Shown here: positions 22,219-24,373 of the stretch, in pieces | Layout: each line of letters starts with the position of its first letter | Numbering within the stretch: position 1 is the stretch's first letter | Sequence record: PZ618369.1 | DNA from: a phage | Length of the DNA stretch: 39,474 nt | Reading direction: 5' to 3' (one strand) | Translations under genes and position numbers: made by a program | The notes under the pieces: generated by a model | Told to the model about the DNA's origin: nothing | Database searches by the model: none | Seen by the model: only the letters and a program-made list of their open reading frames with translations

Positions 22219-22240
22219 TAAACTATCACTATAGGGAGAC
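22219..22240 (+). promoter_or_regulatory. phage RNAP promoter (phi10-type), full consensus TAAACTATCACTATAGGGAGA
   Basis: only copy with the full GGGAGA start; transcript begins GGGAGACC...GGTTTCCC, which can form a 5' hairpin as in T7 phi10. Confidence 0.85.
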
Positions 22241-22341
22241 CAAGAGACAGACTCAAGGTTTCCCTATTACTTCAGTCCATACGGATTGGGCATACAGTAA
22301 GTAATAAACTTTATCTTTCAATTGAATAGGAGAATTATCAT

Positions 22342-23385
22342 ATGGCAAACGTTCCGGGTCAGAAAATTGGTACAGACCAAGGTAAAGGCAAATCCAGCTC
22401 CGACGCTCTTGCGTTGTTCCTGAAGGTATTTGCTGGTGAAGTCCTGACCGCATTCACTCGCCGCTCTGTAACTGCTGACAAGCATATTGTCCGTACCATT
22501 CAGAACGGTAAGTCTGCTCAGTTCCCGGTCATGGGTCGCACCTCCGGTGTGTATCTGGCTCCGGGTGAGCGACTGTCCGATAAACGTAAAGGTATCAAAC
22601 ATACCGAGAAAGTGATTACCATTGATGGTCTGCTGACTGCCGATGTGATGATTTTCGACATTGAAGACGCGATGAACCACTATGACGTGGCTGGTGAGTA
22701 TTCCAACCAGTTGGGTGAAGCTCTGGCTATCGCTGCCGATGGTGCGGTTCTGGCTGAAATGGCTATCCTGTGTAACCTCCCATCCGCATCCAACGAGAAC
22801 ATCGCGGGTCTGGGTACCGCGTCCGTACTGGAAGTTGGTAAGAAAGCTGACCTCGACACACCAGCTAAACTGGGTGAGGCAATCATCGGTCAACTGACCA
22901 TTGCTCGTGCGAAGCTGACCTCCAACTACGTTCCTGCTGGCGACCGTTACTTCTACACCACGCCGGACAACTACTCTGCAATCCTCGCGGCTCTGATGCC
23001 GAACGCTGCTAACTATGCTGCGCTGATTGACCCAGAGACTGGTAACATCCGTAACGTTATGGGCTTCGTTGTTGTTGAAGTTCCGCATCTGGTTCAGGGC
23101 GGTGCTGGTGAGACTCGTGGTGAAGATGGTATCTCTATCGCTTCCGGTCAGAAACACGCATTCCCGGCGACTGCTGCTGGCGACGTTAAAGTTGCTATGG
23201 ATAACGTTGTGGGTCTGTTCTCTCACCGTTCTGCTGTGGGTACTGTGAAGCTGCGTGATTTGGCGCTGGAACGTGACCGTGACGTCGATGCTCAGGGTGA
23301 CCTGATTGTTGGTAAGTACGCTATGGGTCACGGTGGTCTTCGTCCTGAAGCGGCTGGCGCACTGGTTTTCAGCTCAGCGGCGTAA
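22342..23385 (+). CDS. 10A: major capsid protein 10A (347 aa)
   Basis: GKSAQFPVMGRT, KHTEKVITIDGLLTADVMIFDIEDAMNHYDV and AMGHGGLRPEAAGA match recalled T7 gp10A. Confidence 0.97.
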   Translation: MANVPGQKIGTDQGKGKSSSDALALFLKVFAGEVLTAFTRRSVTADKHIVRTIQNGKSAQFPVMGRTSGVYLAPGERLSDKRKGIKHTEKVITIDGLLTADVMIFDIEDAMNHYDVAGEYSNQLGEALAIAADGAVLAEMAILCNLPSASNENIAGLGTASVLEVGKKADLDTPAKLGEAIIGQLTIARAKLTSNYVPAGDRYFYTTPDNYSAILAALMPNAANYAALIDPETGNIRNVMGFVVVEVPHLVQGGAGETRGEDGISIASGQKHAFPATAAGDVKVAMDNVVGLFSHRSAVGTVKLRDLALERDRDVDAQGDLIVGKYAMGHGGLRPEAAGALVFSSAA

Positions 23386-23516
23386 GCACCTTTAGCCAAC
23401 CTAACGTCGCTACAGTAGCGGCTGCACCTGAAGAGGAGACTCTAACTCCTCAACAGAAAGCTGCGCGTACTCGTGCTGCGAACAGGGCCGCTAAACTGGC
23501 TGAGTCAAACAACTAA
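22342..23516 (+). CDS. 10B: minor capsid protein 10B by programmed -1 frameshift (predicted)
   Basis: heptamer GGTTTTC at 23364-23370 as in T7 gene 10 as recalled; the -1 frame is open for 48 codons to TAA at 23514-23516 (translated by hand, no stops). Confidence 0.6.
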
Positions 23517-23520
23517 TTGA

Positions 23521-23558
23521 AACCCCTTGGGTGCCTTCGGGTGCTTGAGGGGTTTTTT
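23521..23558 (+). terminator. intrinsic terminator (T-phi equivalent)
   Basis: CCCCTTGGGTGCC-TTCG-GGTGCTTGAGGGG followed by TTTTTT; a 13-bp stem with several G-U pairs and a UUCG loop. Confidence 0.8.
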
Positions 23559-23579
23559 GCTTAAAGTGAGAGGAGACTT

Positions 23580-24146
23580 ATGGCTCAATACATTCCACTG
23601 AATGCTAACGATGACTTAGATGCCATCAACGATATGTTAGCCGCTATCGGTGAACCAGCAGTCCTACAGCTTGACGAGGGGAACGCTGACGTCTCGAACG
23701 CTCTACGTATCCTGCATCGCGTCAATCGTCAGGTCCAAGCTAAAGGCTGGAACTTTAACATCAACGAAGCAGCTGTCCTGACACCTGACATCCAAGACAA
23801 TAGGATTCGATTCTTGCCGTCATACCTTCGTGTAATGACCGCTGGGGCCACCAGCTACTACAGCAACATGGGTGGGTACCTGTACGACCTGTCCACCCAG
23901 TCAACCACTTTCACCGACCCTATCACGGTAGAGCTTGTGGAGATGAAGCCATTCTCCGAGATGCCTGTGGTCTTCAGGGACTACATCGTAACTAAAGCTA
24001 GCCGTGAGTTCAACGCTAAGTTCTTCGGTAGCCCAGAGTCAGAGCTATACCTTCGTGAGCAGGAAGCAGAACTCTATCAGCAGGTTATGGAGTACGAGAT
24101 GGACACTGGTCGCTACAACATGATGTCTGACATCGGGAGGGACTAA
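23580..24146 (+). CDS. 11: tail tubular protein A
   Basis: synteny and size (188 aa); first gene after the terminator. Confidence 0.85.
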   Translation: MAQYIPLNANDDLDAINDMLAAIGEPAVLQLDEGNADVSNALRILHRVNRQVQAKGWNFNINEAAVLTPDIQDNRIRFLPSYLRVMTAGATSYYSNMGGYLYDLSTQSTTFTDPITVELVEMKPFSEMPVVFRDYIVTKASREFNAKFFGSPESELYLREQEAELYQQVMEYEMDTGRYNMMSDIGRD

Positions 24147-24373
24147 TGGCTAGTCACAACCTGAAGATTCACCGCCAGCACTTTGGTCCGGTACAGCTAG
24201 GTCTAAAGACAGCAGAGCTGAGACTTAACGACCGGGACTTTAAGGTTGGCGATTGGCTTATCCTGAATGAATGGGACAACGGGTATACTGGACAACAGGT
24301 AGCACGTAAGGTTGTCCACATTGCTGACGTTGGTGACATCGCTGAGGGATACGTTCTAATGAGTATGATTTAA
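24146..24373 (+). CDS. ASCH/PUA-like (DUF3850-like) small protein (75 aa) inserted between genes 11 and 12
   Basis: HNLKIHRQHFGPVQLGLKTAELRLNDRDFKVGDWLILNEWD...YTG fits my recollection of the DUF3850 signature; ATG overlaps the gene 11 stop. Confidence 0.55.
   Translation: MASHNLKIHRQHFGPVQLGLKTAELRLNDRDFKVGDWLILNEWDNGYTGQQVARKVVHIADVGDIAEGYVLMSMI

Follow-up and report, generated by a model that had tools for sequence, protein, structure and literature searches.

The capsid gene and the open −1 frame at its 3′ end

The window, i.e. the whole 39,474-nt stretch of phage DNA analyzed here, belongs to a K1F-like Kayfunavirus (Studiervirinae) of the T7 family: its capsid region is 96–99% identical to that of many Kayfunavirus genomes, and its right-hand 24.5 kb share 96.9% identity with Escherichia phage vB_EcoP_SP7 (Kayfunavirus). 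The features discussed below lie in and around gene 10:

22219–22241, plus strand: K1F-type phage RNA polymerase promoter ctaaactatcactatagggaga, directly 5′ of the capsid gene
22342–23385, plus strand: gene 10A, major capsid protein, zero frame (ORF list; 347 aa, 36.3 kDa)
23349–23516, plus strand: open stretch in the −1 frame, 55 codons plus stop (translation)
23364–23370, plus strand: slippery heptamer G GTT TTC, putative −1 shift site (sequence; zero-frame context ctG GTT TTC)
23370–23516, plus strand: 10B-specific part, 48 codons (QLSGVSTFSQPNVATVAAAPEEETLTPQQKAARTRAANRAAKLAESNN) plus TAA (−1-frame translation)
23449–23502, plus strand: conserved core of the extension (LTPQQKAARTRAANRAAK), common to the 10B tails of T7, Berlinvirus and T3-like phages
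23520–23559, plus strand: T-phi-type intrinsic terminator, hairpin plus T-run, including the CCCC at 23523–23526 (fold; conserved in relatives)

The product of the 10A ORF is a T7-family major capsid protein, as indicated by its match to the Pfam family Gp10A-like (PF21703, E = 2e-105). In the PDB, it matches the solved T7-like capsid chains 9vvq, 7y23 and 2xvr, and it is almost identical to chain 9vvq_I across 344 aligned residues (E = 2e-216). Besides the K1F-type promoter, a ribosome-binding site precedes the ORF; the promoter sequence agrees with the K1F consensus given in the ASO2B record. Further downstream, tail genes 11 and 12, which abut in K1F, are separated in the window by a 75-aa ORF (24146–24373, plus strand) that encodes a DUF3850/ASCH domain (Pfam E = 2e-19 and 1e-5).

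The C-terminus of 10A reads ...GALVFSSAA and is encoded by the final codons GGC GCA CTG GTT TTC AGC TCA GCG GCG TAA, the stop codon occupying positions 23383–23385. The first G of the heptamer lies 19 nt before this stop and the first base of GTT 18 nt before it, so that the eighteen nucleotides given in the initial annotation are right within one base; 12 nt separate the end of the heptamer from the stop. The −1 frame is open only from position 23349, and a shift reaching the extension must therefore fall within the 37 nt between 23349 and 23385, where no in-frame heptamer other than G GTT TTC has a homopolymeric A-site triplet. Translation of the −1 frame from position 23370 gives exactly the 48 residues quoted in the initial annotation, up to the TAA at 23514–23516, and 44 of these codons lie past the 10A stop. 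The terminator, a 17-bp hairpin (AAACCCCTTGGGTGCC-TTCG-GGTGCTTGAGGGGTTTTTT) followed by a T-run, starts 3 nt after this TAA, at position 23520, which agrees with the earlier statement that the extension ends directly before a terminator. No ATG, GTG or TTG in the −1 frame of the extension yields an ORF of at least 20 aa; furthermore, the +1 frame closes at 23395, and readthrough in the zero frame would end after 10 codons. Since the extension has no start codon of its own and the other two frames close early, a −1 shift is the sole entry to it.

Predicted 10B product

A −1 shift at the heptamer would produce a 10B of 391 aa (40.9 kDa) consisting of residues 1–343 of 10A followed by the 48-residue tail, with ...GALVFQLSGVSTFSQPNVATVAAAPEEETLTPQQK as the predicted junction peptide (...PEAAGALVFQLSGVSTFSQPNVATVAAAPEEETLTPQQK as a tryptic peptide). 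The predicted 10B is indeed larger than 10A, as the initial annotation had it, but the difference of about 5 kDa given there is to be corrected to about 4.7 kDa (40.9 versus 36.3 kDa). In PHROG, the extension matches two 'head protein' families, phrog_12582 (E = 4e-10) and phrog_20538, both of which consist of tail ORFs mis-called as stand-alone genes. A tblastn search of phage records with the 48-aa tail gave no match, probably owing to the low-complexity filter. When the tail was modeled alone with AlphaFold2, its first half came out unstructured and residues 27–47 formed a helix (pLDDT about 87–93). The tail is thus predicted to comprise a flexible linker rich in Ala, Thr, Ser and Pro and a conserved basic helix (TPQQKAARTRAANRAAKLAE).

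Homologous sites in K1F, T7, Kvp1 and T3-type phages

The closest well-studied counterpart of this locus is found in K1F, the type species of Kayfunavirus. It displays (i) the identical heptamer, likewise 19 nt before the 10A stop; (ii) an extension of which 46 of 48 residues are identical to those of the window, likewise with 44 −1-frame codons beyond the 10A stop; and (iii) the same terminator directly after the −1 stop. The two residue differences between the tails are QLS versus QPS and RAAK versus RADK. Altogether, the 202-nt region differs between the two phages by five substitutions and by one nucleotide in the length of the T-run, with nothing different in kind. In K1F, a −1 translational frameshift in gene 10 adds 44 triplets, and a g10b::gfp construct with GFP at the end of gene 10b gives stable fluorescent phages (PMC6277420). 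The same type of gene 10b fusion has served to display adhesins and SpyTag on K1F (PMC13370021; bioRxiv 10.1101/2024.10.11.617866). The K1F papers are at odds on whether 10B is essential (PMC6277420 versus bioRxiv 10.1101/2024.10.11.617866).

In T7, the homologous codons read GTG GTT TTC AAA GTG GAG TAA, with G_GUU_UUC at the same Val-Phe pair. The −1 frame of T7 encodes ...EETLTPAQEAARTRAANKARKEAELAAATAEQ, in which the tail motif EETLTPAQEAARTRAANKARK of T7 10B corresponds to EETLTPQQKAARTRAANRAAK in the window. The core LTPxQKAARTRAAN is common to the window, K1F, T7 and Kvp1, and the similarity with T7 extends to EETLTPxQxAARTRAANxA. The T7 tail is longer, with 53 codons past the 10A stop against 44 here; as in the window, however, its −1 stop lies just before a T-phi-type terminator with a conserved CCCC. 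The −1 frameshift at T7 gene 10A/10B was reportedly described by Condron, Atkins and Gesteland in 1991. It has an efficiency of about 10%, and the resulting 10B is made and incorporated into virions. A review of frameshifting ascribes the T7 gene 10 shift to the ribosome and lists the X_XX part of its site as G_GU (PMC5009743); together with the T7 codons given above, this bears out the statement in the initial annotation that GGTTTTC is the heptamer used in T7.

More distant relatives show variations on this layout. Kluyvera phage Kvp1 (Berlinvirus) has the same heptamer and the same tail core but a different linker, its tail reading ...ELTPQQKAARTRAANKARKEAELAATE, and its record carries 10B as a joined CDS. 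Kvp1 10B has been shown by mass spectrometry, with a −1 slippage at TTTTCA; the peptides of its tail came from a band of greater size than that of the capsid protein (PMC2579914). Phages of the T3/phiYeO3-12 type (e.g. L008) have a 10B with a related tail, ...LTPQQKAAITRARNKALKS; there, the shift takes place at lysine codons, A_AAG (CCA AAG), without GGTTTTC.

Chance level and selection on the −1 frame

Taken by itself, the window says little about whether the heptamer is used. GGTTTTC occurs three times in the 39,474 nt against 3.7 expected, GTT and TTC are the most frequent Val and Phe codons in 10A, and a gene with the codon usage of 10A would encode L-V-F as CTG GTT TTC with a probability of about 0.3. 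A 44-codon open stretch has a probability of about 0.11–0.17 on the basis of composition and of 0.039 when −1-frame positions within long ORFs serve as the reference. A further null, based on the openness of the −1 frame past the stops of other genes, was discarded, as the next gene often occupies that frame. The heptamer and the open frame being near chance here, the case for a frameshift rests on the relatives and not on the statistics of the window.

We therefore turned to the 3′ ends of related capsid genes. Using a DNA search and pattern-based locus retrieval, 160 such ends were gathered from IMG/VR and GenBank, corresponding to 109 distinct sequences; among them, 42 distinct tails carrying TP[AQ]Q[KE]AA[RI]TRA were aligned. 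Within the 18-codon core of these 42 tails, the first, second and third positions of the −1-frame codons are variable at 6/18, 6/18 and 17/18 codons, respectively, with summed entropies of 4.45, 4.85 and 19.2. Between the window and L113, the core displays nine synonymous and no nonsynonymous differences, and its dN/dS in comparisons with other genera ranges from 0.06 to 0.19. This pattern indicates that the core of the extension is under purifying selection and hence translated in the −1 frame. The extension is typical of 10B, as the initial annotation had proposed, on grounds that go beyond its low complexity: it is homologous to the T7 10B tail and selected in the −1 frame.

The nature of the codons at the slip site correlates with what lies downstream in the −1 frame. 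A recognised −1-frame module is present in 63 of the 64 distinct relatives with GTT TTC (among the 109 distinct capsid 3′ ends) and in all three relatives with GTT TTT, as against none of the 21 with GTC TTC, GTC TTT or GTA TTC. In these module-less GTC/GTA relatives, the −1 frame either closes in sequence derived from the terminator, after a few to about 57 codons, or enters gene 11 by accident. A 2×2 comparison of GTT with all other Val codons before Phe yields a Fisher P of 3e-16, a value that is not corrected for phylogeny and is only indicative. Relatives that carry other modules and no GTT TTC have A_AAG sites, like T3 and phiYeO3-12.

Frame continuity is kept as well: beyond the 10A stop, the −1 frame stays open for at least 38 codons in 61 of the 62 distinct sequences with an in-frame G GTT TTC. 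In the remaining one, L013, the tail is intact in other respects but is cut off by the loss of a single nucleotide (TAAGC to TAGC). The deletion, seen in L013/L094 (IMGVR_UViG_2974615076_000001), falls at the 10A stop, about 20 nt past the heptamer, and reflects either a natural variant devoid of 10B, in which case the tail can be lost, or an assembly error. In three further sequences (L030, L104 and L117), the first G of the heptamer is replaced by C or A while GTT TTC is kept and the module is present. Because modules persist in these sequences despite the changed first G, comparison of the sites suggests that the A-site slip on U_UUC matters most.

These data bear on the possibility that the −1 frame is open by chance or as a relic undergoing decay, the heptamer merely reflecting preferred Val-Phe codons and no 10B being made. 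The window statistics are compatible with it (a heptamer count at chance level, GTT and TTC as top codons and an open-frame P of only 0.04–0.17), as are the loss of frame continuity in L013 and the lack of a local RNA stimulator (see below). However, it is hard to reconcile with the strong purifying selection on the −1-frame tail across genera, with the 46/48 identity to a K1F tail whose fusions decorate virions, and with the fact that the relatives without a −1 module have GTC or GTA and not GTT; we consider it very improbable. The locus has a zero-frame heptamer, an open −1 frame, a homologous and selected tail and a T7-family capsid gene, as do T7-type gene 10 sites.

The terminator and candidate stimulatory elements

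The terminator hairpin is conserved in 19 relatives, three of its stem pairs showing compensatory changes, and its CCCC lies 159 nt after the start of the heptamer. In T7, the terminator CCCC, which lies over 200 nt downstream of the shift site, affects frameshifting by an unexplained route (PMC5009743); the distance is thus shorter in the window than in T7.

No local stem-loop or pseudoknot was found within 70–80 nt 3′ of the heptamer, where the predicted fold equals that of shuffled sequences (z = −0.04). Local structure 3′ of the site is likewise absent from all K1F-type relatives (z about 0), whereas it is significant in T7 (z about −2.3) and in Kvp1, which has a strong hairpin (z = −5). 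By inspection, there is no Shine-Dalgarno-like stimulator at a suitable distance upstream of the site. With G_GU as X_XX, the site is an imperfect version of X_XXY_YYZ and its intrinsic efficiency may therefore be low.

Two long-range pairings were considered as stimulators and rejected. The minimum free energy fold of the single sequence contains a helix between AGCUCAGC (23371–23378) and GGCUGAGU (23496–23503), which is broken by AGCCCAGC in K1F and most relatives. RNAalifold pairs the heptamer (23364–23370) with CAGAAAGCU at 23461–23467 (CAG AAA GCU, codons for Q-K-A, about 90 nt 3′), corresponding to columns 1–7 and 105–111 of alignment A1. Of 39 T7-type tails, 38 preserve this 7-nt complementarity, even where U-A has changed to U-G. 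However, the complement of the heptamer is missing in 20 of the 21 sequences without the T7-type tail motif, the pairing of the heptamer with CAGAAAGCU shows neither covariation nor compensatory changes, and shuffles score equally; the complementarity is probably a by-product of the coding constraint on both sides.

One may still conceive that the K1F-type clade frameshifts without a local hairpin or pseudoknot and depends on a long-range element, either the terminator region or the heptamer/Q-K-A complementarity, but we hold this to be doubtful. If it were true, this compact natural variant, with 159 nt to the CCCC and no local structure, would provide a clean system with which to address the puzzle of the T7 long-range stimulator.

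Proposed mechanism and alternative readings

Taking the comparisons together, the site is almost certainly the orthologue of the programmed −1 ribosomal frameshift site of T7 and K1F gene 10, whereby 10B would be made. As for actual frameshifting in this phage, its efficiency and the incorporation of 10B into the virion, we infer them from the relatives. The scenario would be as follows. Most ribosomes translating the capsid mRNA would read ...GALVF-SSAA-stop and produce 10A (347 aa), while a minority would slip back by one base on G_GUU_UUC through tandem slippage: (i) the P-site Val-tRNA would move from GUU to GGU, with two of three positions presumably still able to pair; (ii) the A-site Phe-tRNA would move from UUC to UUU; (iii) the next codon read would be CAG (23370–23372), and translation would go on in the −1 frame to give 10B (391 aa), ending at the TAA before the terminator. 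10B would then co-assemble into capsids as a minor species.

The same protein would arise if the phage RNA polymerase added or omitted a base in the T-run, without any slippage by the ribosome, and the two mechanisms are inseparable by sequence alone. A T4 run is indeed present in the heptamer. Productive transcriptional slippage, however, is known from runs of about 7 or more, and the T4 run falls far below these. Moreover, the layout is that of a ribosomal site on which two tRNAs re-pair, and what the relatives keep is GTT TTC and not just the T-run, the base upstream of it varying (C, A or G when L030, L104 and L117 are included). Given also that the T7 case is ascribed to ribosomal frameshifting (PMC5009743), transcriptional slippage is a most improbable source of 10B.

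A stand-alone 'minor capsid/head protein' gene encoding the tail, as might be read from the separate ORFs annotated 3′ of gene 10 in LL2 (gp37), NS1_31 and Dev2 (gp10.1) and from the existence of PHROG families, is excluded here because the −1 frame has no start codon giving at least 20 aa. It is also at odds with two observations: among 62 distinct sequences with an in-frame heptamer, the frame runs on unbroken from the slip site in 61, and in Kvp1 the peptides of the tail were recovered from a band exceeding the capsid protein in size (PMC2579914). We give it hardly any credence.

Different −1-frame modules among relatives

Across relatives, C-terminal modules of different kinds are found in the −1 frame at this position of the capsid gene. 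In many Kayfunaviruses, a module of about 88 codons (phrog_7473, E = 6e-37), continuous with G GTT TTC, replaces the T7-type tail; it is recorded as a separate 'minor capsid' or gp10.1 ORF. The module survey covered Kayfunavirus loci (L006, L007, L014, L017–L027, L074, L078 and L079) and further loci (L036, L040, L049, L052, L053, L055, L057, L058, L064 and L069). Other relatives carry one or two modules of Ig-like appearance (Big_2-type by eye) behind A_AAG sites. From these sequences, the slip site resembles a docking point at which capsid decorations can be exchanged.

A long extension is found in L054, L065 and L162 (IMG/VR 3300034349_000001 and 3300034127_000003), which have the heptamer G GTT TTT and a −1 frame open for more than 267 codons, past the end of the locus (from about position 1230 in L054). 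This extension begins with a Big_2 domain (Pfam E = 1.4e-11), followed by GDS...GTNN...DGTH motifs that by eye resemble those of an SGNH hydrolase; no Pfam match was obtained for the second half of the extension in L054. The frameshift may here serve to display an enzyme on the capsid.

Annotation of gene 10B

The feature described here is already known at the level of both the genus (K1F) and the family (T7 and Kvp1), and it adds little new biology. What remains is mainly an annotation gap: the correct annotation of 10B in the window is join(22342..23370,23370..23516). 10B is missing from the majority of GenBank records of close relatives; more specifically, none of OM867676, PQ133619, MT682707 and MZ726794 (L001–L004) annotates the joined product, and the records of some relatives call fragments of the tail as separate genes. 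Note that several records, as well as PDB entry 9vvq, give the 347-aa capsid protein itself the name 'minor capsid protein' or 'hypothetical protein'. Knowledge of the gene 10 frameshift dates back to 1991 in T7, and capsid display in K1F makes routine use of it; the practical value of the present analysis lies in annotation. The rule that emerges from the relatives, namely that a −1-frame module accompanies GTT TTC but neither GTC TTC nor GTA TTC, is usable for the automatic annotation of 10B in Studiervirinae.
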